Assembly: GCA_027604505.1 (NCBI GenBank)
Contig: JADIIX010000099.1
Coordinates: 1-64,000, forward strand
DNA: 64,000 nucleotides
Direction: 5' to 3'
Source of the DNA: Gonapodya sp. JEL0774
Taxonomy: Eukaryota
The position numbers and the translations under genes are program-made. How positions within the stretch are numbered: position 1 is the stretch's first letter; each line of letters opens with the position of its first letter. The notes beneath the pieces are model-generated. The model ran no database searches. It had not been told where the DNA came from and was given only the letters and a program-made list of their open reading frames with translations. Below are positions 37,642 through 60,869 of this stretch, one piece after another.

Positions 37642-40618
37642 ATGAAAGACGAAGATAATACCCTCCGTGGGGCGTGCTGGGAGGTCTGCTGCAAATTTTG
37701 AACACTGTCTTCCGTGGTCAAAATCCACTCACCCGTACCTACGACCATCCAAGTGTGACTGCCCAGAATATGCCCACGTTGCTGCTGCTCTCCATTGTGG
37801 TGACTGTGGGCATCTCGTCACTCACCATGCGGTCGTAGACCGCCTCACACCCATTCCGCCAGTCATCATGTCTGACGGTGCTGGAGGTACTGTGTACGGC
37901 ACCCCTTTACCAATGTCCATGACCATGCAGCAGCATCAACATTTCATGATGCAGCAACAAATGATGATGGCGGGCGGAGCCACGCCGCATTTGGGATCTC
38001 TAATGCCGTCCTATGCGGCGACTGGCGTCCCCTTCCAATCTGCCAGACCTTTTGGATCGCCTGCCGGTATGAACGAGTCACTTCACCCTACTATGTACCA
38101 GATGGAGCCTATGGGCCACACCTCAAATCCCGTCTCTGGAGTTGAAGAATGGAGAACTGTGATGCAACGTTCTGATATGGTCAAGGGCACGAACAAGGAA
38201 ACCTCAGAAGTCAGCCAGGTGATTGCGGAACAGGACTCAACACCGCCTCCGCCGGGTGTGCAGTCAAACTCCGTGGCTGTACAGGAGCTGAGGCGCCGTG
38301 AGTTCGGCCCGTTAGACCTTCGTCACGTTTGAGCTCCCTACTTTGCGTACCGGTCGAAGCTCATCGCAATGTTATCCTTATCTCCTTGGTGGCAAATAGG
38401 AAAACACAATCCATCTGATGCCAGCCAGTCCAGCTCCACCTCGGCTGCTCTTACGCCTTGCGAGGCAACCATGGAACCGGTTCAAGCAAATTGCCCAACA
38501 ACCTCCCCAACGCTGCCCGCTCACTTTAGTGTCCTTTTTATCCTCCATATTAGCGTTTGGCTTGCCGCAGTATCATACCTCTTGTTCACAAGGGACCCAG
38601 TGACAAAATTCGGAAGTAAAACCGGACGCAAAGAGTGCCAAGGATCAGGAGCGGAGAAACTTATGGAAAGGTTTGGAGTATTCGGTGCGGTGAGTTTGCT
38701 TGATGTAAAGAAGATTTACTGAGCCGTACAAACACACGAGATAACGCTATTCCTCTTCGGTGCGCTCCTCCCGCGCTCCAACGGGACTATCGGCGCTTGC
38801 TAGACCGTAATGGTTCTTAGCACGCTCGTGGCAGGGTGGATATCCGTTCGTGGTATTTCTGCACACAGGAGGGCCTTGGCCAGAGTGGTGGCAGCAGTGA
38901 GTTTCAGTCACTGTATACCACTGGTCGGTACTGTGGAGCTTGCAGTTTACTAAGTCCTGCGTCTACACACACAAGTCACTGGTTCTATCAACAATTCCGT
39001 ATTTCCTTCCTGTGATTTCCACCCTCCCAATTACTCCACTGCACCTTCTTAAAGGCATATCCCCGATATATCAGTCTGTTCTCGCCGTTTCTCGCACCGT
39101 TTCTTCAGCACTCCTCCTTCTCTTTCTATCGGCTCTTCCCTCCACGGCGACTGGCCGTGATACTGTTCCTATGTTGTCTCTCTATCTCTCCTCCATTGCC
39201 GCCATTTTCTCCATCAGTGCTTCTGCCCCTTGGCGACATCTGTTGTTTGTATTTTCGATTGCGGGACATGCTTCTGTCGTCAAAGCCGTTGCGAGGTTTA
39301 TGGATGGACAATTCTGGGGAATGGCAACGTGGATACGAGTACCGGTGAAATTTGGTCTCGTGGTGAGCTGGTCAGGCTGGCATGTCGGTTTCTTTTGTAA
39401 GTCGAATCGGTTTGTCGACGGATTACACAACTAATCTCTCTCTTCCCGGCGTCAACACCCCATTGTGTTAGTGCATATCGTCGGCATTATATCTCACGAA
39501 CGATATGAAAACACCGTCGTGGTGGCGGATGTGGTGGCCAGAATTGTTTTGGTGTGTGCTTGACAAAAGGTTGTTCCTTGGTGGTTCACGCGGTCTGTTT
39601 ACGCAACAATCCTAATGACGACAGCCGCTATTAATACTCGTGACTTATACAAACCAACAAAGTGGAGCACTCGATGAACCAAGAGCACAAAATGAAATCA
39701 CTATGGAGGACAAAATAGGCACTGCGATGGATGGTCTGCTGCGAAGTGCGTCGATCCCTAAACAGTGAGCCATATAATCCGTGCTTAGAGTCCGTGGCAT
39801 TGTGGAAAGTGTATTGCGTTATCTACCCCGGGTGCCACAATCAGAGTGCTCGAAGCATTCGAAGCCGGCGACAATGCGCCCAAGTGGTCCATCAGGACTC
39901 ACGATACAGCTGCTGTGGTGATCGTTCGGATAGCAAATTACGCGGTTTTGGAAGCAAAACTCGAAGTGAGTGGCCCTAAATCTCACACGTGCTCACGCCC
40001 AACCACTGCATACCTCCTCACTCAATTCGCTCACAGTCAAAGGGAATTGAATCTTTTTTTGCCAAGTTTAAGGCTGTATATGCTAGTCTGGGCGCCGAGC
40101 GCGGCGTTATAAGCATAGATGTGAACCCCGGCACTTGGGCAGCGGTGGCTGGCTATTGTGTCGGCGAAGTCAAAGAAATGAGCCCGTCATACGCGGTAGA
40201 CTTTGCCGTCGAATTGATGAACAAAATGAAAGAAACGAAAGTGATTATGGGTGCGAAAGGTGAGATGGCGACTTCGATTGAACTTGTAATTGGGGTTACG
40301 ACTGGTGAGTCAAGGTCAAAAGAATCCCATTTCCACACCTTAAAATACAATGTGCATTGTTTAGGATCCATCACGGTGGGAGAGACAGAAGGACGCGTTT
40401 GCGCTGCAGGTCCTCCTCTCGACAATGCGTGTTTAGCAGTTCAGATGACCAAGCACTGCGGTATCTTCGTCGATGAGTCAACGTTCGAAGCCATCAAGGA
40501 TAACCCAAAATTCAGAATGAGTGGCCCGGAGATTATTGAGCGGAAAGGAGACCGAGCAATGACAACTTATCACGTCGATCTGCGATTGACAACAGAGGAA
40601 ATTGAAGTGCTTCCATAG
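37642..40618 (+). CDS. RGC paralog A: rhodopsin-cyclase-like protein with retinal Lys->Arg and a pseudo-cyclase domain
   Basis: Starts MKDEDNTLRGACWE|CDCPEY..CGDCGHLVTHH like B-D. Exons splice in frame at paralog-equivalent positions. Helix G reads ADVVARIVL; the cyclase-like C-terminus ends FRMSGPEIIERKGDRAMTTYHV. Confidence 0.8.
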
Positions 40619-44229: not shown

Positions 44230-47114
44230 TTACATCCTACCCTCGACCCAGTAGGTCCTCATGACGCCCTTGCCCTTGATGTCCATGACTTCAGGACCAC
44301 TGAAGATAAACTTGTTCAAATCCTTAACAGCAAGGTACGTACTCTCGGTGATGTGGATGCGTCCGGCTTTGGAGGTGGACTCCATTCGCGAGGCTGTGTT
44401 GACTGTGTCGCCGACGATACAATAGTGAGGATTGAGGTCTCCCAGAAGACCAGCAATGACAGGACCTGTAAACAATGAATTTTTGTTTACGAGTTTGTAC
44501 CATTAGGAATTGCAGACAATTGCGTTCCCACCGGTGTTAAGTCCAACCCTGCTCATGATTCTGTCACCCGTCTCCGTCTTAAAGTCCTTGAGCATGTCAA
44601 GAACATCGATTGCGAAATCAACGGCCATCTCCGCATTGCGTGGGTTCTCTTTCGGGCAGCCAGCTACTCCGAGGAACGCGTCTCCAATAGTTTCGACCTT
44701 GTAGATTCCGTACTTCTTGAGAATAACATCATATTGCTTCCAGAGAGAGTCTAGCATTTGCATAGTGCCTTTAGCCTATGTTTAAGAGGAAATTAGTTGT
44801 AGCATTGACAGGTAGTTGTAACAAGTGTAGCACAAACAAGTCACACTCACATCCATTTTCTGTTGAAGTTGAGCGTAGTTGACGATGTCAGAGAAGAATA
44901 CGGTAACTTCCTCGAACTCGCGGGCATCCGTCCCCTCGCCGGCTTTGAGCTGTTTCACAACGCTTCAAGGAGGCACGGAGAACACGAAGGGGTGCGTACA
45001 GGGATCATGAAGATCAATGTTAAACACCGGCTTGAGACACATGACAGCCACTCACTCTTCTGGAATAAGCCGGGTGAGCATTGCGTCGGTCTCGGCGATG
45101 GCGGCGTCGAGCTTGTCCACCATTGCGTTGAGGCTCTCGTTCGCGGCTTCAACGACTTCCATCTTTTCCCTTTGCACGAGCTCCGTAGCGGCATTGAGCA
45201 AAACTAAAGTCTGTTATGAATTGCGTGAACAGGATTGCGACGGCAACATGACAGATATTAGGGACGGGAATGACGGATAACTGTGGAGAATCTACCGAAC
45301 TTACTGTGAGACCTTTCGCAACCATGTCAGAGCTGACATTTCCAAGCTCGTATGTATCAAAGGAGCACAAGTCCAGGAGATAGACTGGGCGAAAACAGGT
45401 GTCAGCGGATAGTGTGAAGAAGAGAAGGACAGAGTAGTGAGAAAATGGACGATGAAACAGAACAAGTCTCAACTACTCACTGAAGTACCACATTGTGAAT
45501 GACCACCAAGAATAGTTGGTCGCGAACCTTAGAAGGTACAGACTTGATTTGTCCACCTTACATTCGGTCTTCCCATTGATAGCGTCAGTATACACCTCCC
45601 ACAGCCTGGCTGTGCAAGGCATAAACGCGGCTTGCGAAATTAACATCCAAATGTCAGCGTACGGCCGCGCCACCCAAACTGCAATGCCTCCCGTGATGTT
45701 CATGATGTAAGACAACACCAAGATTGGTGTGGCCTTGTGTTTGGTCTTGGTTACGCTGAATGCAATACTCGCAAGAATAGGGCAGCAACAAGACCACTCG
45801 AGGAACCGAATCGCGTGCATGGCGGTGCCACGATACACGTCAGGAGCAGCGTAGTCCCAGCGATTGACCATGAAGACGTATGCGCCGCAACCCATAGATT
45901 GGCACTAAGTAATACGAAATTTGTAGGAAAGGACCAGGGAAGGAGAGAATGGCATGTTTGAGAAGGTAAGAAGCAGAAAAAAGAATTGCAATTAACGAGG
46001 GCAAGAGGTCGACGTACTGCCAGGACTGCCCAGGCCAAGAACCTCTTGTTCGGATCCTTCATGGTCATAAGATTAAGAAGAGTAAAGAATATGCACAGAC
46101 TGTATCCCCACTAAAGTTCAAAGGTTTATGAAAGAGAAGATATTAGTCACATCAGAAGACAATCCACAGAGAACCCCGCGCGCCTTCCACCAGCCACCAC
46201 CCGCTTTCAAAGCACTACTTACTATGCAATACGTATCATAAAGGTCTGAGTTGGGGCCTTTCTTGGGGTACGGATTCGTGGGACCATTTTTGTAAGTGTT
46301 GTAACCCATCAAGAGAGCGCCTGTCCACCACACGGTGAGGTTTCCGATCACTATGGCTGGGAATCTTTCTGGGAATGTTGGCCTGTTGTCCAGCACTTTG
46401 GCTTCCAATTTGGTCACAGGCAACTCTGGTCGAAGGAATGCCACGTTCAGCGGCGAAGATTTCAATAGCCCCCCATAGAAAGCCAAAATATTTCTTCGCG
46501 TTACCTTGGAATGTATTCACCGGGTTCACCTGCGGTGGCAGTGACGGCTTTAAAGCGGGTTTCGGCATCGCTGGCTTTGGCGTGACTGGAGCCTGAGCAG
46601 GAGCGGGCGCAAGAACCGAGGCCGGCATTGACTTTGGAGGGGGACTAGTGACACCGTGGCCATCGTCGTGCGAGTCGTGAGCTGGTGCTGACTTGCTGTG
46701 GTCTTCGTGACTGTGACCGTCGTGTGCAGTATTACCTCCGTGAGAAGGTGCACCGACAATATGAGGGTGCGGCACTGGCTGAGATGTACTTGGCTCTGTA
46801 GCAACTTGATGTTGTTGTGGCTGGAATTCCATAGGTGCCGGACCGCGAGATACAGCACTCTTCATTGCAGGGACCCCAGTGAGGCCAGCCGGATACTGTG
46901 CGGGGGCCCCCCAGGACGAGGTAGAGCCAGAATTGTCATGTTGTGGCAAAGGTGGCAGGGGATGGACGGTGAGTGGCGTGAGTCTGTCGATGACAGCATG
47001 ATGGGTGACGAGATGCCCGCAGTCGCCACAATTGATGGCGGTCTCGATGGTTGCGTACTCCGGGCAATCGCACTCCCAGCAAGCACCGCGAAGAACTTTG
47101 TCGTGATCCTTCAT
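44230..47114 (-). CDS. RGC paralog B: rhodopsin-guanylyl cyclase (CyclOp/BeGC1-type)
   Basis: N-terminal Cys/His motif; extra TM0; helix C RFLEWSCCCP; helix G SDMVAKG; coiled-coil linker; GC motifs FFSDIVNY, YKVETIGDA, PHYCIVGDTVNTASRMES, KGKGVMRTYWV. Confidence 0.93.
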
Positions 47115-47680
47115 TTGGATTTGGAGTTATTCAAGATTCTTTTGAGACGATGGATGCTTCGCAGACGAAGATGAAAGTTGATGAAAGGGAGCTGGATAGA
47201 TCAGGTGATCGCAGCACGATTAGCTTGATGTTAAGATAGAGACGGTGATGAAGAGAAGGCGCTCTCGCTTACGAGCATCATCGCCGATTCCACTCATCTG
47301 GAATTTGGGACAGATGCTCGAGTTTGCCATCAACAAAGTGGCAACCGCTCTCGGGAGACATCCCATCAAAGAGGTGGTCATTTGCGCAATCCACTCACCG
47401 TTCGAATCTAATGAAAAGTAGGAAGATGTTGTGGGGGTGAATGATGCAGACCTTCCTTTATGAGCTGGCTGCCTTCTTTCGCCACCAAACCCTGAACCTG
47501 AGCAAATACCTCCGAACTGCTTGACGAGAACTTCCAGGAGAAAAACATTCACGCGCGATCGACATTAAGTTGAGTGAATTCTCTATTTTACATTGACAGG
47601 CTAATAAGATACAATTAAAGGAATCGATTGCCCATTGATCACTTGATATCAACACGCAGTCCACACCACCCTCATAACTT

Positions 47681-50600
47681 TCAGATTCTATCATCGACAA
47701 AATAAGCTAAGGTTGTCACTCCTTTGATTTCTATCGGTTCTGGTCCGCTAAATCTGAACTTCCCCAGATCTTTCACCATGCTGTATGTAGTTTCGTTGAT
47801 GTGGATACGCCCGGGTTTAGAAGTGGCCTCCATACGTGAGGCGACAGTTGCAGTGTCTCCGACAACAGTGTAGTGTGGGTTCGTCTCTCCAAGGATGCCC
47901 GCAGTCACAGGGCCTGTGAAGATTGATTGCGAGAACAAACGTGTACTCAGTGATGGCCATGTGTCGTGTCAAAACAGCAAATGAGTCCTAACCTGTGTTC
48001 AGACCGACCCTAATATTGATAGGCTCACCGGCCTCTGTTCTGAAGTCTTTTATCATTGCCATGATGTCGAGGGAAAATTGGACGGCGCGTTCGGCATGGT
48101 CCGGAGTTTCGGTTGGACATCCAGCTACACCAAAAAAGGCGTCCCCAATGGTTTCAATCTTGTAAATGCCCCACTTCCTCGCAATCGCATCATACTGCTG
48201 CCAGAGGCGTTCAAGCATCTTGATCATATCCTTCGGCTGTCACGTTTCGGATTACAGTTGTTGCATGATACGGTGGCACGGGTAGATGACCAAAATGGAC
48301 AATATTAGGGTGGAAGAACAAATTAATGGAAAGAAGGGCTCACTTCGGTCCGACTGGAGAGAACAGTAAAGCTAGCAATGTCTGAGAAGAACACAGTGAC
48401 AGCCTCGAATTCGCGGGCACCTGTGTCTTGTCCACTCTTGATTTGCTGTATCACGCTATGTGTCGAAGCCGGAGAGAATTCGATCAGAAACAACGCCAGT
48501 TGTATCGTTACTTCGCTCCCAACCAGTGCTCGCACTGAAAATCAGTCAATCCAATCACGCAATCCCCATGATAAACAGAAATTGACCCTTGTGGTGCGTG
48601 AAGTAAAGTCAACTTACTCTTCTGGGATCAAACGAGCGAGAATGGCGTCCGTCTCTGCAACTTCTGCATCCAACTCCTCCACGAGCGCGTTTAGAGTGTT
48701 GTTAACTTGCTCCACCTTTTCCACAGCGAAAGTCTGAACTTGTTCGATGGACGCGTTGGTGAGAATCAAGGTCTTTGCGACGGAGTAGTATCGAAACAAA
48801 GACTTATCGACAACTGACGAGCAAAACATCAATGAGGTTTCTATAGTTACCAGTATTACTTTGGCAAAAATATCAGCGCCAATCATGCCAGCTTCAAACT
48901 GATCATGAGTCAGAATGCCACCGCAATAGACTGTGGGTAAGAACATCATTTGTTGATACATGAAGAGTTGTATTTGGACGAGATTGTGCATTGCTTACTC
49001 AAATAAGTTGTGGTGAATGTCCACCAAGCGATCATAGTGGTAACGCGAACAATCTTCAGACTCCTTGTTGGAAACCGACATTCGGTTTTCCCATCAATGG
49101 CATCAGTGTACACTATCCATAGGTTGATGATGATGTACATGAACAGTCCCTGCGATACGACAAGGGAGATGTCGGCCCAAGGTCTGGGGAAAATGGCTCC
49201 AAAGAAACCCGTCAAATCCATGAGAAAGTTCGCGAGGCGAACGTACGACACGTTGCGGCGTGTCTTGGTGATAACAAATATGATTTGAATGAGGAGAGGA
49301 CAGCAACACATCCATTCGATGAAGCGAATGGGGTGGTTGAGAGTTCCACGGAATGGATCGACGATTGCAGGGTCGAGCCGGAATATCATGATAATGTACG
49401 ACCCTATCGCCATGCCTAGACACTGTCGTGCAAACCAGGACGTTCACCTCACGTCATCAAAACGGTGTCCAATCGTTATGCTCGAACTTACGAGGAACAG
49501 CGCCAGTGATAGAAATCTCTTTTCGGGAAGCTTAGCTGTCCAATAGCTTATCAGGGCATAAACCATTCCAAAAACACACGCCCACTAAAACGGAACTGTG
49601 AGTCGAGCGCGAGGATTCGGCTAAATCAGCTCCATTTAAGCTTACAATACAAATCCAGTCGTAGGTATCGCAAGTCGGGCCTTTCAGCATGTACTGTCCG
49701 GGGAAGCCGGTCTTCCATCCCATCCAGACGCAAAATGCCGCAGAGATGCACCAATTTGTAACGTAGAAGGCCAAGATAGACGGAAACTGTTCTGGATGCG
49801 GTGGCTTCATTTGGTTGACACTTGCGGATATTGATGTATTCGTTTCGAACACTGCTTTGTTCGGCTTTTGGTGTTTGCTAATTTCATCCGTGTCCTCAAA
49901 GTTTACTTTTGGAGGCTCCATGGTTTTACCTACATAGTCATTTCCATCCGTTTATAAAAAGAAATCATGAGAAGAATCATGCAGAGACGTGGTGCTGAAT
50001 GAAGAACTGACGTTGTCTCATCTCAGACCCCTTGTTACTTTCCATGATTGGCACCAATGCAACGTCTGGTAGGCGGGGGATCGCAGTTTTTGTGATCGTT
50101 GGTGGAGATGGTGCGGTTTCTGGAACGATAGGGATTTGGATACTTGGGACAGAAGTCTGCTGGACTTCGAGCTGAGGTTGTGCTACTGTGATATTGGTTG
50201 CGATGAGCGGCTGAGGTATTGATGCTTTGTTTGGGGCTGGCGCTGGTGGCTGGGGTTCCACAACGATAGATTTATGGAAGGCATTCATTTGCGGTTTGGA
50301 CACTCCAGAACGTATTGGGATTCTCGAAGCCGGCTCTTGAAGCGCAGACGGTCCTCTGCGAAATCGCAGATAATTGAGGGTTGCGGGAATAGAAGGATCG
50401 GGACCGCATCTGCTTATACTCACGAAGGGAATGACACAGGGGCAGGTTGGCCAGCGACCGCGGTTGAAGTTCTGCTATGACGCTCGGCCAAAGCCAGTGG
50501 CGAAAGACGGCTGATGACAGCATGGTGTGTGAGCAAGTGGCCGCAATCCCCACAGTCCAGAAAATTGGTGACATGCGCAAACTCTGGGCAGTCACACTTG

Positions 50601-50713
50601 TCAGAAGAATATTAAATAGAAGCTCATTGGAATCTAGCAGCTCAGTTGGAATGCCAACTTTGAATGAATACCTTCCAGCAGGCTCCTCGCAGATTGCTAT
50701 CGAAATCCTTCAT
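47681..50713 (-). CDS. RGC paralog C: rhodopsin-guanylyl cyclase
   Basis: MKDFDSNLRGACWK|CDCPEF; helix C RFIEWMCCCP; helix G ADIFAKV; FFSDIASFT, YKIETIGDA, PHYTVVGDTATVASRMEA. Confidence 0.93.
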
Positions 50714-51493: not shown

Positions 51494-53118
51494 TCAATCA
51501 TTCTTTTTCTCAGGCTGAGAAAACGGATACCACAAGCTGATGGTCACTAGTCCAACTTCAAATTTGTGGAAGTTAGCATTCATTGAGTCAGAACGGCGAT
51601 TTCAATGTCTGACACTTACTAAGTAGCCACAGTGTCGTGTTGTCCAAGAAGCCACTTTCAGTCCAAACAGTTGGCTCAACTTTCTCAGCAACGTGATCGG
51701 CATTATCCGACAACCACCGGAGTCTGAAACCATCCGTGAATCGAGATCCTGAGGACTTATCAGATGTGCTATGTTTGCTTTGGGTTTCGACCGCTTTGGA
51801 AGATCTATCAGCTCCGCTTAGCTTCAGTCCACGAGGTAAGTTCGCGTTCGCTTGATCCGGGTGTGGGCGGTTCCAACCCTTGCCGATTGCCGACGACCAC
51901 ATCTTGTTCCAGAAACTCTCCCTTTTGGTCTCATCCTCTGTCACATTTTGGATGGTCTCAGAATGTTTAACAGTCGACGGCTCTTGTTTCTTGCTCATGT
52001 CGTCCGATTTAGATTTGAATTTAACAAACGCGTCTTGGAGTTTAGCGAGCCAATCGGATCCCGCGGACTGTTCTGAGACTTTGAAGATCTTTGAGCGTTC
52101 ATTTGGATGAGAGGATGGCACTTCGGTCATCAATGGTTGCTGTGTCGAGGGGACGGACCCTTGAGCATGCTGATAGCGTTGCAACGGTGGAATCTCTTGC
52201 CGAAGCCTATCTGATCTCAGTATAGGCCATGAAGCAGGCTGCGGTGCTTCCATTGACTCCATCGCTGCGTCACGCATGTACTGGTCGTTCACAATGCGAG
52301 ATCCACTCGCGTGATTGCGCATGTAAACGGGTTCCGTCTCAACGTGAGCACTCTGTGGAGACTGCTGTTTAAGATGCCGAAGCTCAGTAGAGAGAAATGA
52401 AATGTCGGCCGCGAGGCTCCTTATATCGGAGTTCCGCTCTTTGCGATTCGTCTCCACAGATCGCTCGAAATTCAAAGCTTCTTGAACGAAGCCTTCGTAG
52501 GCGGAGCCGACGGCTTTCTTCATTTCTATCGTGAGTTCATCAAACAGTGACTTGGTCGCGATGTTCCTGTCATGGATAAACTTTTCGAATGTGTCCAGTT
52601 TGTGTTCGAAAGCCAGCTGCCGCTCAGTTGATGCTGCAGCGAAGGAGCTCAGACCTTTCTCCAAAGCTTCATAGTTGCTTGTCAGCTTGCTCACACCCTT
52701 GAGATCGGTGAATTGTTGATGGATGGAATCAAATTGTGCACGAAGTTCTTTCGATTCACGTCTCAATGCGGATATCTCAGACACCACGTCGTTGCTAGCC
52801 CGCAAATCACCACTTCCGGGGCTTGATCCGAAGCCTTTCAGCAAGTTTAGCAACAGTAAGACAGCTGCAACGCCGATGACGGCGAGCTTCGACAGTCCTT
52901 GGAGATGGATTCATGGATTAGAGTCAGAAGGTTCCCATGATGATGATGCATTCACAAATACCTCGGGATGAGCTCTCTGAGGCTTGAAATACTCCATACT
53001 GAGCACGTTTGGTTGCGTTCGTCTTGGCGAAATCGTCTCTTGAAGATGAGAGGTGTGACATCTCAGATAAGGAAGACAGCGATCCCCCAATACTTCGAGG
53101 AACGGGTGGAGCTTCCAT
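51494..53118 (-). CDS. Paralog E1: uncharacterised TM / coiled-coil / C-terminal TM protein
   Basis: MEAPPVPRSIGGSLSSLSEM; intron; TM LAVIGVAAVLLLLNLL; heptads; W..GFLDNTTLWLL|IGLVTISLWYPFSQPEKKND*. Confidence 0.8.
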
Positions 53119-53595
53119 GTTCTCGCGTCCTCAAAATATAGACGTGATATGTAGATATACAGAAGATTTGTGATTGATCCAGGCAAACCGCGTGATGTCG
53201 AAGGTAACTTGCGATAAGGGAAGGCAGCCATCCCACTCACACTCCTCCACCAACGTGATGAAAGCCAGAGGAATACGTGACTCCACAGCTTGGTATTAAA
53301 TAACCAAAAGAAAGATTCGGGAACATTCATAGTTAGAAAGAGAGCAGACATCGGTTCTCTCAAGTCTTCGTGTTTACGATGTCTGAATGATTGAGCAAAT
53401 GGCTATGAGTAGCTTCAGAAAGTAATAATATGTAATACTAGCTGTCTCCCCTCGGGTGGTTGTTTGCATTGTTTATGTTGCAAGAATCGAGTACTGCCTG
53501 CTTGCAGATGGATGTGGGGCGCGGCCGGCAAATCTTCGCAGTTCTTCTTCAAATAATCTACTTGTCTCTGCTTCAATTCGCTGCTGGAAGTAACG

Positions 53596-55249
53596 ATGGA
53601 CGCTCCGACTATTCCTCGAAGTCTGGGAGGATCGGTTGCCTCCCTCTCTGAAATGTCCTCTTCCCTTCGAGACTACAGACAGTCGCTATTCCGCAAGTCA
53701 GACTCCATGTCAACTCCGATTAGCGATCCATCAAGAAAGGCCAAGGCCCCTAGCCTTCAGTCTGAAGAGCCTTCACCTCTACAGAAGGTCCCTCAAAGCA
53801 ATTTAGATTGGTCTGCGTTCGTACAGGGAATCGTCACCTGGGCCTCAACCGACCCCCAAGGAGCGGTCAAGGTGACCGGCTTCGTTGTCGTCGGGTTCTT
53901 TGCGCTTCTGGGGTTCTTGCAAATGTTCGGACCGAGCTCCGCATTGCCCGACAATGGAGTGGGCTCTGGTGTGGCATTATTGCAGAGGGAAGCCCATGAC
54001 CTCCGGCAACAGGTGGATTCTGTCTATCAGTTATCGGCAGGTTTCAAGGGAATCAGCAAGCTGGCTAGTAATTTTGAAGCATTGGAGAAGGGAGTGGATT
54101 CGTTTGCGGCCGCAACCACAGAGCGACAGAAGTCGATCGAGCAGAAACTCTCCATGTACGAAAAGCTCAGCAGTGACCGCCACAGCATGTCTCAAGCCCG
54201 CTATGATGAACTAAAGAGGGAAGTCAAAAACTTAGCTAGCTCGAACCACGAAACTTTTGTCCAGGAGGTGCTCAGTCTCGAACGATCCGTCGATCAAAAA
54301 TTTCAGGAGCACAGTTCCGCAATAAAGAATATCGCTGCTGACATTTCACTTCTCTCCACCGAACTCCGGAAACGTAAAGATCACCCTTTTCAAAATGCGC
54401 AGTTCGAATCGGAGCCCCCTGAAGTGCGGCACCCATCTCGGGCCTACACTCATCAGGCGCACGACATATTTTTAGGTGATGCAGACGCGGAGCCCGAGGA
54501 GTTTAGACAACAGAATCCAATGTCGCAGAAGCGCAACACTAAAGGGGACACGTTCTCCTCTGAATCAAGAAGTACGCTGGCAATGAATCTAGACTCATCG
54601 GCATGGAATGAAGGTGCCAGTGATTCAGCTCAATCAACACATCACGATCCATGGTCGACATTGGAGAGCACGTTTCCCAAACTGAAACCAACGACTATAC
54701 AAGTATCCCCGGCAACAGATTCCCAGTTTGCGGTCCTTCCAGATCCCCCCGCGAATGCCGATGAACCATATGGGCCAAGCCTATTTAACGTTATCAAGAA
54801 AGGCTTGATCTCATTCTCGAAGCGATTTGATCGTCCTTACATCGATCAAACAATGGCACACGTCGCTGATCGATTAAAACTCAATAAAGTGGAAGCACCT
54901 TCCAAGGTTGACGATTCGCATCAGGCTTCGCACTCTAAGTCTCAGAAGAAGACGCAAACGCCTCCGCTATCAGAGGAACCGTCTGGAACTCGCGTGGTTG
55001 AGGGCATTAAAATACGGGTACTGTCCGAGGAGCGTGAAACCCTTAAAAAGAACGATGAGCCAACTATTTGGTACAAGAATGGGTGGGACAACATGAGCCT
55101 GTGGCTAGTCAGTGAGTGACCACTGAGATTACTGCACCGACTGATGTGAACTGATGTGAATGATAATGTGTCCATCTCTGTTCTAAACAGTTGGGCTGGT
55201 GACCGTCACACTGTGGTATCCGTTCTTGGGTCTCGAGAAGAAGGATTAA
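53596..55249 (+). CDS. Paralog E2: uncharacterised TM / coiled-coil / C-terminal TM protein
   Basis: 507-aa ORF MDAPTIPRSLGGSVASLSEM; TM VTGFVVVGFFALLGFL; heptads; WYKNGWDNMSLWLV|IGLVTVTLWYPFLGLEKKD*. Confidence 0.85.
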
Positions 55250-55930: not shown

Positions 55931-58616
55931 ATGAGAGACTTGGACAACACTCTGCGAGGTGCCTGTTGGGAGGTTGGTTTGAACGCGTCTACATCAGAAT
56001 CACTGCCCCGTACTGATTCTCCCTATGCAAGTGCGACTGTCCAGAATTCGCTCATGTCACGAAAGCTTTGAATTGTGGAGATTGTGGGCATCTCCTCACT
56101 CACCATGCCGTAATCGATCGCCTCTCTCCGGTTTCTATGTTAGAGCTTCACCAGAGGGCGTCATCCGTCAGATCCAGGCGGCAGTCAGCCAAAAGCATCC
56201 CCCAGTCTGCATACGGATTCATGACTGCCATCCCTATTCAGCCTGCCCAAACCGGACCACATTCACATGACAGCCATATCGTGTCGGCGGTTTCTCCAAA
56301 CCCTTCCCACTCATTGAGTCCATCTAAATCTCCACTGCCAGGGCCAGCAAAGCCAAGCGTGAATAAAAATGCTGCAGAGCACCAACCTGTCGTGTGTCAG
56401 CCAGTCGTCACAATTCAGGAAACAAGGAACACAGAAAATGCCCGATTCCCAGAGCGAAAAATGGAATACAATCTCCCATCTCATAATAATTCTTCGCTAG
56501 GCAATGAAGAGATCGTGACCCGGCACTTACCCACTGTCAATTCAAAGAAACCTCCGCAGCCGGAGCAGTTTCCAGGCATTTTAGCGTTCTATGTTACCAC
56601 CTGGTGTATTTCTGCTGGCGCTTGCGTTTGGATGGCCTGGAAATTGAACTTCCCGGGCAAAACCATTCCGAAAGGTCCTGATTGTGACTTTTATGACTCG
56701 CACTGCATTGTACGTTCCGTCTCGGAATCTGGTTTGGACCGTGAAGGTTTTCTCATGAGCATCATTTATACAGTGGGCTTTTGTTTTCGGCATGGTTTAC
56801 GCGATGATTTCTTACTCATCAACACGGCTCCCTGAGAAGAGATTCTTGGCTTTGGCGCTTTTCCTTGTGAGTACATGTTCTCAGGCGACTACCATCTATC
56901 TACAAAGTTTTTACTTAACACTGATGCCTCTTGACATGCCAACAGTGCTTGGCCATGGAAACTTGCGCCTATGTCCTAATGATTTACAGATTGGACCCCG
57001 CATTCGTCGATCCGTTTCATGGAAACATCAGTCACCCATCGCGCTTTATTGCGTGGATGTGCACATGTCCTCTATTGATTCAAACTATTTTCGTCGTGAC
57101 AAAGACGCGGCGGGATGTTTCTTACGTCCGCCTTGCAAACTTCTTCGTGGACTTGGCTGGCTTCTGCTGTTCTTTGTTCCCGAGACCTTGGGCCGAACTC
57201 TTCGTTCTCCTTGCAGTGTCGAATTTCTTTTATGTAATAAAGAACCTTTGGCTCGCTTATTCGGAAGCCATTGATGGAAAAACCGGATGTCGGTACCCAA
57301 GAGGAAGTTTAAAGATACTGCGCATCACTACAATTGTGTCTTGGACAGCATTTCCAGTGACTTACCTTGGTGAGTGTAGCTCTGATCCGTCTTTTCTTGT
57401 GAATGGTGCTCTTGATTTGGTTTTCTGTCTCTTCGGCAGCCTACGCTTTCGGGTACATCACGCACAGCCAATTCGAGGCAGGCATCACAGTCGCGGATAT
57501 ATTTGCGAAGTTAGTTTTGGTGAGAACAGAGAGTGTACTCGACCACTCTTCAATATGGCACGGTAACAATTTGTTCCCTCCTTTAGACGTTGATTCTCAC
57601 CAACGCGTCTATTGAACAAGTGCATACAGTTCAAGTAGAGACAGTGGAAAACGTCAATACTGCTCTTCATGAGTTAGTGGAGGAGTTGGATGCGGAAATC
57701 GCGGAAACTGACGCGATTCTCGCCCGTTTGATCCCAGATGAGTGAGTAACTTTAATGACGAGGGCACATGCACATGTCCTGGACGAAAATGTGCTGAGCG
57801 AGTCATAGTCCTGATGTACGGGTTTACTCCTCCCTCCCTCTCTCTTGTCAGAGTAATCCAGCAACTTAAAAACGGTGAGGCGACAGACGCTCGCGAATTC
57901 CCGTCTGTCACCGTCTTTTTCTCGGATATTGCCAGCTTTACTGTTCTTTCTGGCCGGACGGAAGTGAGTGCCTGGATTCAACCTCAGCGATATTTGCTAC
58001 AATGTTGAACCCGAACCGTTTTCTTCTCACATTCGACGGATGGAAACTCCTGAACAGCCAAAAGAAATGATTAAGATGCTCGAACGCTTGTGGCAACACT
58101 ACGATGCGATCGCGAGGAAGTGGGGAATTTACAAGATTGAAACTATCGGTGACGCCTTTTTTGGCGTGGCGGGGTGTCCAACTGAAACTCCAGACCATGC
58201 TGAGCGTGCAGTACAGTTCTCAATTGACATCATGGCAATGATTAAAGACTTCAGGACCGAGGCAGGCGAGCCCATCAATATCAGGATTGGTTTGAATACA
58301 GGTGAGCGTTCTGGTAGAATTGCATCCGATTTCGTTCCAGAGAAGTTACCACGGTTGGTAACGTCATTTCCTCCACTTTGCAGGACCTGTAACTGCCGGT
58401 ATTCTCGGCGAGACAAACCCACACTACACCGTAGTCGGAGACACAGCCACAGTCGCGTCTCGAATGGAGGCATCGTCTAAGCCCGGTCGAATTCATATTA
58501 ACGAGACCACTTACAATATGGTGAAGGATCTTGGCAAGTTCAAATTGAGCGGGCCGGATCCCGTGGAGATCAAAGGTGTGACCTCCATGACATACTGGGT
58601 GGACGGGAGACTGTGA
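55931..58616 (+). CDS. RGC paralog D: rhodopsin-guanylyl cyclase with Ala at the helix-C counterion site
   Basis: MRDLDNTLRGACWE|CDCPEF; helix B CLAMETCAY; helix C RFIAWMCTCP; helix G ADIFAKL; FFSDIASFT, YKIETIGDA, PHYTVVGDTATVASRMEA; ends YWVDGRL*. Confidence 0.93.
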
Positions 58617-59127: not shown

Positions 59128-60869
59128 TCAATGGTCATCGCCTGTGGATGGGAGCCCATATGGGAACCAGAGGGACACAGTCACCAAGCCGACTGTTCAT
59201 GTTCGTAGGTGTGCCCAAATCAACGGACTGAGGTTGAAGAGCGCACTCGCGAGTGAACACAACACTTACTGAGGTACCACAGAGTGAGATTGTCCCATCC
59301 TTTGTTGACCCACTCCATAGTTTCCAGGTACATTTGGACATTCTCTGCCGTTTCTTCGACATCCGACGGTGCTGATAACACCACGAGATTCATATCTTTC
59401 TTCGAGAGATCGTTGGCGGATTTTGAATCAGTATATTCGTTCGGCCTTTTCGCTGGGCGGGCGATAATGGAAGACTTGAAGAGACTGGTGGTCTGTTCCC
59501 AAACCTTCTTCAACCCTCTGGCGTCAGATTTCACCTGGTTTGGTGCGTCGCGCGATCCGAAGCCGTTTTTGACGAACGCCTTGGGAGGAGGCACGGAATT
59601 TTCTTTTCCATTCGAGTCGGATGATGCAGACTGTGCTCTAAATGAGCCAGTAACTTTGCTATAAAAGGATGCAAAGATATTCCCGTCGAATGAGCTTTGT
59701 GCTTGAGTACGCTCTGTTGGTTCTGCTGGTGGTGTTGCCCCAGGTCTGTTCTTTTCGATTGGACGATTTAACCTGTTCGTATCCGCATAGCGATCGGCCT
59801 GGTCAGTGTCCCTTAAACGTTGCGACCCCTCAGGTTCCTTGTTTCTCTCAGATCTTTCGGGTTCCCTGTAAAGCTCGGATCTCTCTGTTTCCCTGAAGCG
59901 CTCGGATCTTTCAGGTTCCCTGTATCGCTTGGGCTGCTCAGGTTCCCTGTGGCGCTCAGACCTCTCGGTTTCTGTGTAGCGCTCGGACCGCTCGGACATC
60001 CTAGGCTGCTTCTCGGATCGATCCGTGCCCTTAGCGACCGATCCAACTTTGAGCCTTCGAACATCTTCGGACAGTGCAGCGAGTTCCATCGAAATGGTTT
60101 GAAGCGCCTGGCCTTGTTCGGTCGTGCGCCTGCCGTATTTGTGTTCGAGGCGGGCCATTTCTCTCTGAAGAGCTTCGGCACGAGTACTGATTGCCCCACG
60201 AAGGTCGTCAACTTGGGTTTGATAGTTCATCTGGCGGACAATGGCGGACTGTTCGTACGAGTCCACGCGGGAATCGACCGCCCGCCGCATTTCGTCCAAG
60301 GCATTGCGCGTTTTGGTGTCCAAGCTCTGTTCAAGGGCCTTGAGGCGATCCAAGAGGGAGCTGGCACCACCAACGGAGCGAAGGTCCGTGGTGAGAGAAT
60401 GCAGAGAGTCGACTTGGAAGCGGAGTTGCGACGCCTCCCGCTGAAGTAGCGAGAGCTGGCTGTTCACATCGAACTGATTTCCGAACGACGGGGCGTTGGT
60501 TTTGTTGACGGTACCGTAAAATACGCCGCCGAAGAGCGAAAAGAAAATCCACACTACTGTGAGGATGAGTGCGGCGGCTTTGGCTTTCCCACGGCCGTCG
60601 AGCGAAGACCACATCTGCATAGGAGTTGTCTGAGATAACATGTGCAATGTGGAACCGTCAGCTTTCAAGCTTGGTTGAGACTCCGTTTGTGCCATTGGTG
60701 TTGTGGTGCCGTGCACTTTAAATGTTGCGGAGGACTGCATCGGCGAATTGGAGCCGTAGACTCTCGAATTCCTTTCATAAGACGCAGGAAGTCCATTGAC
60801 GCTTCCGAGCGAGCCTAGTGACCCAGGCGGACTTGATTGGCGAAATGATGCGAGACTGGGTATCTCCAT
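59128..60869 (-). CDS. Paralog E3: uncharacterised TM / coiled-coil / C-terminal TM protein with 9-aa repeats
   Basis: TM AAALILTVVWIFFSLFGGVFY; LLQREASQLRFQVDS (E2 has LLQREAHDLRQQVDS); WVNKGWDNLTLWYL|IGLVTVSLWFPYG. Confidence 0.85.
59780..59997 (-). repeat. Coding 27-bp (9-aa) tandem repeat inside E3
   Basis: ERSERYTET ERSERHREP EQPKRYREP ERSERFRET ERSELYREP ERSERNKEP EGSQRLRDT DQADRYADT. Confidence 0.85.

Follow-up and report, generated by a model that had tools for sequence, protein, structure and literature searches.

The window analyzed here is a 64,000-nucleotide stretch from Gonapodya sp. JEL0774 (GenBank assembly GCA_027604505.1, contig JADIIX010000099.1, positions 1 to 64,000 of the forward strand), in which four rhodopsin-cyclase-like genes are found: A (plus strand), B (minus), C (minus) and D (plus). 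In gene D, a predicted rhodopsin-guanylyl cyclase (RGC), the helix-C Glu at the position of bacteriorhodopsin (BR) Asp85 is replaced by Ala, and a Glu is present in helix B at the position of BR Ala53. In gene C, its sister, the two residues are reversed. This reciprocal Glu/Ala swap is real, and its register is confirmed by structural overlay. The resulting arrangement of Glu53, a neutral residue at 85 and Asp212 (BR numbering) is known in anion channelrhodopsins; as a swap between sister genes of an enzyme rhodopsin it was not found in the literature and published RGC sequences searched here. The new Glu probably compensates functionally for the lost helix-C Glu, either by rebuilding a pair of acids or by taking over as counterion. 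The form of compensation tentatively preferred here is a rebuilt Glu276–Asp432 pair that would share one charge, mostly on the Asp, and give a protonated visible pigment bluer than that of C. The features on which the argument depends are as follows.

55931..58616, plus strand: gene D, predicted RGC, 9 exons, 686 residues
55931-55972, 56032-56709, 56774-56866, 56946-57369 and 57440-57519, plus strand: exons 1 to 5 of gene D
57587-57741, 57852-57963, 58058-58301 and 58384-58616, plus strand: exons 6 to 9 of gene D
56946..57369, plus strand: exon for helices B (latter half) to F (AlphaFold2 model, BR range 49-191)
56958..56960, plus strand: Glu276 (GAA), helix B, equivalent to BR Ala53, GtACR1 Glu68 and, by counting along the sequence, BeRhGC Ser224; C has Ala here and B has Gly
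57051..57053, plus strand: Ala307 (GCG), helix C, equivalent to BR Asp85, BeRhGC Glu254 and Rh-PDE Glu164; B and C both have Glu
57496..57510, plus strand: helix-G Asp432 (57496-98, equivalent to BR Asp212) and retinal-binding Lys436 (AAG, 57508-10, equivalent to BR Lys216)
47681..50712, minus strand: gene C, sister RGC with Ala53, Glu85, Cys89, Ser141 and Thr186 (BR numbering) and cyclase substitutions as in D
44230..47115, minus strand: gene B, outgroup RGC with Gly53, Glu85 and intact Cys566, Asn573 and Arg577; possible partner subunit

Both swapped codons of D read as given in a preliminary description of this DNA, and the matching codons of C are reversed (GCG at 49410-08, GAA at 49317-15). 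The gapless alignment of the two genes claimed there was likewise recovered: C and D align without gaps across their last 500 residues, and the exon that carries both sites is 424 nucleotides long in B, C and D alike and begins at the same splice acceptor. To turn the C state into the D state, two base changes are required in each codon, and five of the seven helix-B neighbors of the swapped site also differ between D and C. A base-calling error is unlikely, since four substitutions in two codons would be needed and the surrounding helix has diverged as well. That the swap stems from a sequencing or assembly artefact or from wrong splicing is very improbable; the codons are read from the assembly and the searches recovered no ortholog of D, but the reading frame and all eight introns are intact and the exon boundaries are the same as in B and C.

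To place the two sites, an AlphaFold2 model of the 142-residue exon product was built from a 30-sequence alignment (predicted local distance difference test score, pLDDT, 94.5); folding from the single sequence was weak (pLDDT 51). The model excludes retinal, and also helix G because this helix is encoded by another exon. The top structural match is the rhodopsin phosphodiesterase SrRh-PDE (PDB ID: 7cj3, TM-score 0.88), on which the model overlays with a Z of 14.7 and a root-mean-square deviation (rmsd) of 1.7 for 142 aligned residues over range 129-273 (exon residue 1 = 129). The overlay on BR has a Z of 14.2 and an rmsd of 2.4 for 138 aligned residues over range 49-191, in which exon residue 1 corresponds to BR 49. 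These overlays yield range ends only, and the assignments to BR 53 and BR 85 were made by counting along the helices. An independent phmmer alignment pairs exon residue 8 with BR 56 (1pxs), in agreement with the overlay register. The helix-B site also corresponds to Glu90 of ChR2. Both equivalences proposed earlier, of the helix-C site with BR Asp85 and of the helix-B Glu with BR Ala53, are thereby upheld. The proposed location of the latter near the Schiff base is also supported: the residue faces inward, and its equivalent in GtACR1, Glu68, lies 5.3 Å from the Schiff base (PMC8691836, Table 3 for the equivalence).

The remainder of gene D is that of an RGC. Its splice model was made by homology and is a gene prediction, with codons read from the assembly; all eight introns are GT-AG and the only stop codon is terminal. 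Pfam searches of single exons detected a type-1 rhodopsin domain (PF01036, E = 3.5e-13) and a cyclase domain on two exons (PF00211, E = 1e-18 and 4e-15), and in the spliced 686-residue model the linker and class III cyclase are in frame with the rhodopsin. The N-terminus is Cys-rich, aligns to homologs and by eye resembles those of BeRhGC and CaRhGC, with a putative extra N-terminal helix. D thus shares with the fungal RGCs (BeRhGC/CyclOp, CaRhGC and Gonapodya RGC1/RGC2) the order of Cys-rich N-terminus, extra helix, seven-helix rhodopsin, coiled-coil linker and class III cyclase, together with Arg82, Trp86, Phe185, Asp212 and Lys216. Tyr57 and Trp182 are also retained, and the helix-G Asp and retinal Lys are intact, as first described. 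By its predicted domain architecture, gene D belongs to the fungal RGC family, and light-driven activity is predicted. It differs from these proteins in the Ala that replaces the helix-C Glu, in the Glu at BR 53 and in Thr at the positions of Cys566 and Asn573 of the cyclase. The canonical RGC Schiff-base site, a helix-C Glu with a helix-G Asp, is therefore not present in D, which has Ala at BR 85. The helix-C Glu is typical of the family and does not define it; the published descriptions of CcNeoR3 and CcNeoR4 record proteins that lack it.

The arrangement in D is rare among homologs. A search over 1.84 billion representatives returned 41 homologs, and removal of the spurious repetitive sequence P0024 and addition of B, C and D gave a count set of 43 RGC-like sequences. 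In the 41 that cover BR 53, the residue is Ala in 28, Ser in five, Val in three, Gly in two, Glu in two and Thr in one; the two with Glu are D and P0033. BR 85 is acidic (Glu or Asp) in 36 of 41 covering sequences. Eighteen of 21 conserved family columns are retained by D, and Glu85 is the sole such column lost by D alone. Glu53 occurs in two of the five sequences that lack a canonical acid and in none of the 23 that have both (n = 28 covering all three sites; Fisher p = 0.026), a post hoc comparison based on two sequences, one of which, P0033, has a very long branch (3.07) in the tree. No D ortholog was found in which to follow the co-variation of the two sites that the preliminary description proposed to look for. 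P0033 is a divergent 271-residue metagenome protein with Glu53, Glu85, Ser212 and Lys216, and its record has no cyclase. It is an independent instance of a helix-B Glu coupled with a missing canonical acid, in this case at 212. With P0033 as query, rhodopsin matches in the ESM Atlas were all below 0.9.

In the main sheet of the Broser 2023 dataset (PMC10622942), no Glu at BR 53 was seen by eye in the first 400 characters of each of 156 rows, where helix B was visible. The sequence motifs of D were not found in that portion of the dataset, and its Gonapodya entries match B and C, with a single long fused entry whose visible part ends ahead of the rhodopsin; by eye, G. prolifera RGC1 is nearest C and RGC2 nearest B. 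Word-based homolog searches yielded no useful sequence among 133 and five candidates. Three of 4591 word-search candidates were rejected as unrelated long cyclase proteins, and L001, the one confirmed of 261 metagenome pattern matches, proved to be a chance hit, off frame, within a region coding for a bacterial ABC transporter. In the literature searched, which lacked most subscription papers, neither a swap of this kind between sister genes of an enzyme rhodopsin nor counterion work on a BR-53 Ala to Glu change (A53E) in microbial rhodopsins was found. Because the arrangement is already known from GtACR1, its occurrence here is less surprising than it would otherwise be.

Counterion displacement is known as an idea from animal opsins. 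The closest counterpart to the Schiff-base site of D is that of the anion channelrhodopsin GtACR1, a precedent that the preliminary description did not include. In GtACR1, Glu68, Ser97 and Asp234 occupy the positions of BR Ala53, Asp85 and Asp212 (PMC8691836), and the protein shares Glu53, a neutral residue at 85, Asp212, Tyr57 and Arg82 with D. GtACR1 is a channel with Tyr at BR 185 and Ser at 85, whereas D, an enzyme rhodopsin, has Phe and Ala at these positions, and the match appears to be convergent. Asp234, which lies 3.2 Å from the Schiff base, is ionized and serves as the counterion, while the more distant Glu68 is calculated to be neutral with a pKa of 12 (PMC8691836). In the D234N variant, Glu68 turns toward the Schiff base, ionizes and becomes the counterion, and it is the likely proton acceptor in the M state (PMC8691836). 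Two bonds from Tyr residues lower the pKa of the Asp (about 3.4 units; PMC8691836).

In SrRh-PDE (7cj3, 7d7q), the best structural match to D, a single helix-G Asp likewise works with a neutral partner acid: Glu164 of helix C is described as always protonated and Asp292 as the sole counterion. Unlike in D, the partner acid is on helix C, BR 53 is Ala and the effector is a phosphodiesterase. Because SrRh-PDE uses Asp292 only, helix C is not a general site of the primary counterion among enzyme rhodopsins. The earlier premise that the helix-C site holds the primary counterion does not carry over to enzyme rhodopsins in general, although RGCs do need the helix-C Glu for a protonated chromophore. 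The accounts available for RGCs show what this need amounts to: the chromophore deprotonates in NeoR E136Q, CcNeoR3, with Gln at the helix-C site, absorbs at about 410 nm, and E254D of BeRhoGC absorbs at 390 nm (as quoted in bioRxiv 2025.06.26.661701). Family members that lack the helix-C Glu, and that are ultraviolet (UV)-absorbing or colorless, were also missing from the preliminary description. Since the helix-C Glu is needed in RGCs (BeRhoGC, NeoR, CcNeoR3 and CcNeoR4), compensation by Glu276 is plausible; because of the GtACR1 and SrRh-PDE precedents, the charge in the dark is more likely to reside mostly on Asp432.

In the preferred reading, Glu276 would replace the lost helix-C Glu as the partner of helix-G Asp432 and so keep the retinal protonated. 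By analogy with GtACR1, roughly one negative charge would be divided between the two residues and in the dark would sit mainly on Asp432. Glu276 would then be mostly neutral and would act as a hydrogen-bond partner, as a reserve counterion and as the acceptor of the proton. Light absorbed by D would gate cyclic GMP (cGMP) synthesis in zoospores, as the family relationship suggests. By its predicted residues, the protein is neither a NeoR nor a TAT rhodopsin nor a channel, and its Schiff-base site is built like that of GtACR1.

Several observations weigh against a rebuilt pair. Phe at BR 185 deprives the helix-G Asp of D of one Tyr bond of the GtACR1 type. BeRhoGC D380N still absorbs in the visible and is blue-shifted (506 nm, a value cited second-hand in bioRxiv 2025.06.26.661701), which points to a helix-G Asp that may not be the main counterion in RGCs. 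CcNeoR4, which like D has Ala at the helix-C site, is reported to bind no retinal. Differences between C and D are not enriched at pocket sites (nine of 24, versus 81 of 233 elsewhere; p = 0.82, with a provisional list of pocket sites), and of the changes found only in D as many approach the family consensus as depart from it (13 versus 13, with one tie). Adaptive change is thus not established, and there is room for relaxed constraint. To these are added the post hoc nature of the co-occurrence described above, the homologs P0029, P0031 and P0037, which lack a canonical acid and have gained no Glu53, and the failure of the homolog searches to recover an ortholog of D.

The first two of these points bear on a true displacement, in which Glu276 would be ionized in the dark and act as the principal counterion in place of the helix-C Glu. 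The mutants of BeRhoGC indicate that its helix-C Glu acts as the main counterion, Phe185 would weaken the helix-G Asp in RGCs, a Glu at position 53 can become the counterion once the Asp is removed (GtACR1 D234N), the swap between C and D is exactly reciprocal, and P0033 combines Glu53 with a missing helix-G Asp. With Asp212 present, as in D, the GtACR1 Glu is the farther of the two acids and calculated to be neutral, and Rh-PDE, which likewise has Phe at BR 185, is described as using its helix-G Asp as counterion. Displacement is rather unlikely on balance, and stays in play mainly because Phe185 removes the Tyr bond that keeps the GtACR1 Asp ionized. The broader claim, that the counterion changed helices, from C to B, between two type-1 rhodopsin paralogs with the ancestral state kept in C, is unlikely. 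Of the shift proposed in the preliminary description, compensation remains plausible and the move itself is not established, given the neutral Glu68 and the counterion role of Asp234 in GtACR1.

A further possibility, on present evidence also unlikely, is that D binds retinal but that most of its Schiff base is unprotonated at neutral pH. The pigment would then absorb in the UV/violet or respond to pH, and Glu276 would be a proton relay or cation site and not a stabilizer. Removal or shortening of the helix-C Glu in the RGC family gives species at 390-410 nm, and CcNeoR3 is described as functioning in heterodimers though deprotonated. TAT rhodopsin of SAR11 resembles D in that BR 85 and BR 96 are both non-acidic and a single helix-G Asp is accompanied by an additional Glu, Glu54; its residue at BR 85 is Thr, its Schiff-base pKa is 7.3-8.4, and Glu54 binds Ca2+ (PMC10865839). 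The same source describes Glu54, a candidate equivalent of BR 53, as distant from the retinal. TAT rhodopsin is also bacterial, has no enzyme domain and carries Thr-Ala-Thr at BR 85/89/96, where D has Ala-Thr-Thr. Against a deprotonated pigment, the chromophores of GtACR1 and Rh-PDE stay protonated with a single ionized helix-G Asp, and D has altered ring-side tuning sites, which are relevant mainly to a protonated chromophore.

The evolutionary history of the genes bears on whether D is a photoreceptor at all. The tree, built from 39 of 44 rows (P0013, P0024, P0035, P0036 and P0040 were left out), places B, C and D in one clade (support 100/100) away from the NeoR-like rows, within which C pairs with D as its sister (95/94), so that C is the closest paralog of D as stated earlier. 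The branch to D (0.45) is longer than that to C (0.12). C and D are 65% identical over the rhodopsin domain and 89.5% identical over the cyclase. The proportions of nonsynonymous and synonymous differences are pN 0.21 and pS 0.85, with synonymous sites saturated, for which reason no ratio of nonsynonymous to synonymous rates was estimated. With B as outgroup, the rhodopsin domain shows 27 changes private to D and seven private to C (p = 0.0008); the changes private to D fall at 27 of 103 rhodopsin sites and six of 104 cyclase sites. D nevertheless scores highest when compared with a profile built from the homologs (193.6 bits, versus 183.5 for C and 162.6 for B). Because of this score, because pN is well below pS, and because Glu85 is the only conserved column that D alone has lost, the sequence is judged not to be in plain decay but to have undergone a lineage-specific acceleration of its rhodopsin domain.

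These data allow a modulatory subunit that is photochemically silent or binds no retinal, with a rhodopsin domain under relaxed constraint and an incidental Glu. CcNeoR4 provides a non-binding relative with Ala at the same site, the acceleration extends across the whole rhodopsin domain with no concentration in the pocket, the cyclase of D lacks Cys566 and Asn573, and the cluster already includes the degenerate gene A, in which the retinal Lys is Arg. This explanation is improbable in view of the retention of Lys216, Asp212, Arg82, Tyr57, Trp86 and Trp182, the top profile score, and a cyclase 89.5% identical to that of C despite saturated synonymous sites, with its substitutions common to C; a buried Glu would also be unlikely as a neutral change. 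CcNeoR3 and CcNeoR4 resemble D as members of the RGC family that have naturally lost the helix-C Glu, but they have Asp89, Glu212 and Val53, where D has Thr89, Asp212 and Glu53. The NeoR acid triad at BR 85/89/212 (E136/D140/E262) is absent from D, which has Ala/Thr/Asp.

The retinal pocket of D differs from that of C at further sites, which the preliminary description did not consider.

57042..57065, plus strand: helix-C motif with Arg82 (57042-44), Trp86 and Thr89 (57063-65), the last of which is Cys in both B and C
57147..57356, plus strand: sites where the pocket of D departs from that of C, namely Val118 for Met (57147), Ala141 for Ser (57213), Val142 for Gln and Pro186 for Thr (57354)

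Relative to both B and C, D has Cys89 changed to Thr, Met118 to Val, Ser141 to Ala, Gln142 to Val and Thr186 to Pro, and it retains Phe185 (57351) as in other RGCs. In other rhodopsins, Thr186Pro causes blue shifts of 440-610 cm-1 and Ser141Ala of 240-560 cm-1 (PMC8815786), and the RGC(a) proteins reported at 550 nm or above have no Pro186. By these tuning rules, Pro186 and Ala141 would push the color of D to the blue of C. The net color is a prediction only, because the loss of charge at 85 would pull in the opposite direction. The red shift of GhRGC2 T137A was not used, since its equivalence to BR 89 is unconfirmed (the count is off by one). The combination of Cys89, Ser141 and Thr186 in B (exon 45904-45481, minus strand) and C (exon 49422-48999, minus strand) is predicted to be red-shifting, which makes B and C candidate yellow- or red-sensitive RGCs. 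At BR 50, where Asn or Asp is usual in RGCs, C and D have Leu (56946-56951 in D) and B has Gln, a substitution that alters the polar setting one turn from Glu276.

The cyclase domain of D hints at a possible partner subunit.

57852..58616, plus strand: class III cyclase of D, with the equivalents of both metal-binding Asp residues, Glu497 and Arg577 (BeGC numbering) kept
58428, 58449 and 58572, plus strand: Cys566 to Thr, Asn573 to Thr and a shortened KGKG loop, respectively

Residue roles and numbering are those of PMC5967339, mapped by eye onto the BeGC sequence: Glu497 and Cys566 select guanine, Asp457, Asp501, Asn573 and Arg577 are catalytic, and base- and phosphate-binding residues are contributed by different monomers. 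The cyclase of C (47913-47681, minus strand) resembles that of D (58384-58616) in that Thr replaces both Cys566 and Asn573 and the KGKG loop is shortened. In B (44465-44230, minus strand), Cys566, Asn573, Arg577 and the KGKG loop are kept, and Thr462 of the phosphate-binding loop is Ala. Thr at 566 is also found in adenylyl cyclases (PMC5967339), but the guanine-type Glu497 equivalent is kept in D. Elsewhere in the homolog set, Asn573 is Thr in P0009 and Cys566 is Thr in P0031, whose cyclase is degenerate; P0005, P0006, P0012, P0019 and P0020 retain both Cys566 and Asn573. Because the base- and phosphate-binding residues come from different monomers, B paired with C or D would make one complete site, and because its cyclase lacks Cys566 and Asn573, D may act in a heterodimer with B. 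A D:B heterodimer is accordingly entertained as possible, somewhat short of probable, on these residue patterns. The NeoR/RGC(a) heterodimers are the known case of partner-dependent cyclases of this kind, and the patterns here hint at B:C and B:D heterodimers outside that Chytridiales system; Monoblepharidomycota RGCs are placed in a homodimer branch by Broser 2023 (PMC10622942). A separately evolved B:C/B:D heterodimeric photoreceptor in addition to counterion displacement would be roughly half as probable as the already unlikely move of the counterion between paralogs. Were that move to hold together with the half-site pattern, B would pair with C or D and the color would be changed by subunit exchange.

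Counterion placement determines the color, Schiff-base pKa and photocycle of a rhodopsin. Because C and D have the same length and exons over 500 residues and carry reciprocal residues, they form a ready-made test of whether a helix-B acid can replace a helix-C acid. The pair also bears on the question of why RhoGC and NeoR cannot do without the helix-C Glu, which in Rh-PDE is neutral. Published RGCs are activated at about 480-600 nm (PMC10622942), and a blue- or UV-shifted RGC module would extend the color range of cGMP optogenetic tools.

The other features of the cluster are the fourth paralog and a pair of open reading frames (ORFs).

about 37644-40618, plus strand: gene A, fourth paralog, with a Cys-rich start and an exon layout like that of B to D
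51591..55116: head-to-head pair of related long ORFs between C and D, at 52910-51591 (minus strand) and 53557-55116 (plus strand)

The two ORFs share 66% identity over 337 nucleotides (52368-52702 versus 54378-54044, blastn) and have no significant Pfam family match. Since C and D both flank this head-to-head pair of related ORFs, the two genes arose together in one inverted duplication that included the neighbor gene. Each ORF lies upstream of an RGC gene and contains a hydrophobic stretch and a coiled-coil-like region. One published entry seems to be a fusion of such an ORF to an RGC, probably through a gene-calling error. In gene A, the retinal Lys is replaced by Arg (AGA at 39540), no helix-C motif is recognizable, and the cyclase lacks the catalytic Asp and Arg; those of its exon-sized pieces that were examined are open, yet they give no Pfam match. 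Gene A is best described as an apparently degenerate copy and a possible retinal-free pseudo-enzyme subunit. Finally, self-comparison of the window revealed degenerate tandem repeats at 794-1797 and 59803-59987, the second of which apparently lies in minus-strand coding sequence.

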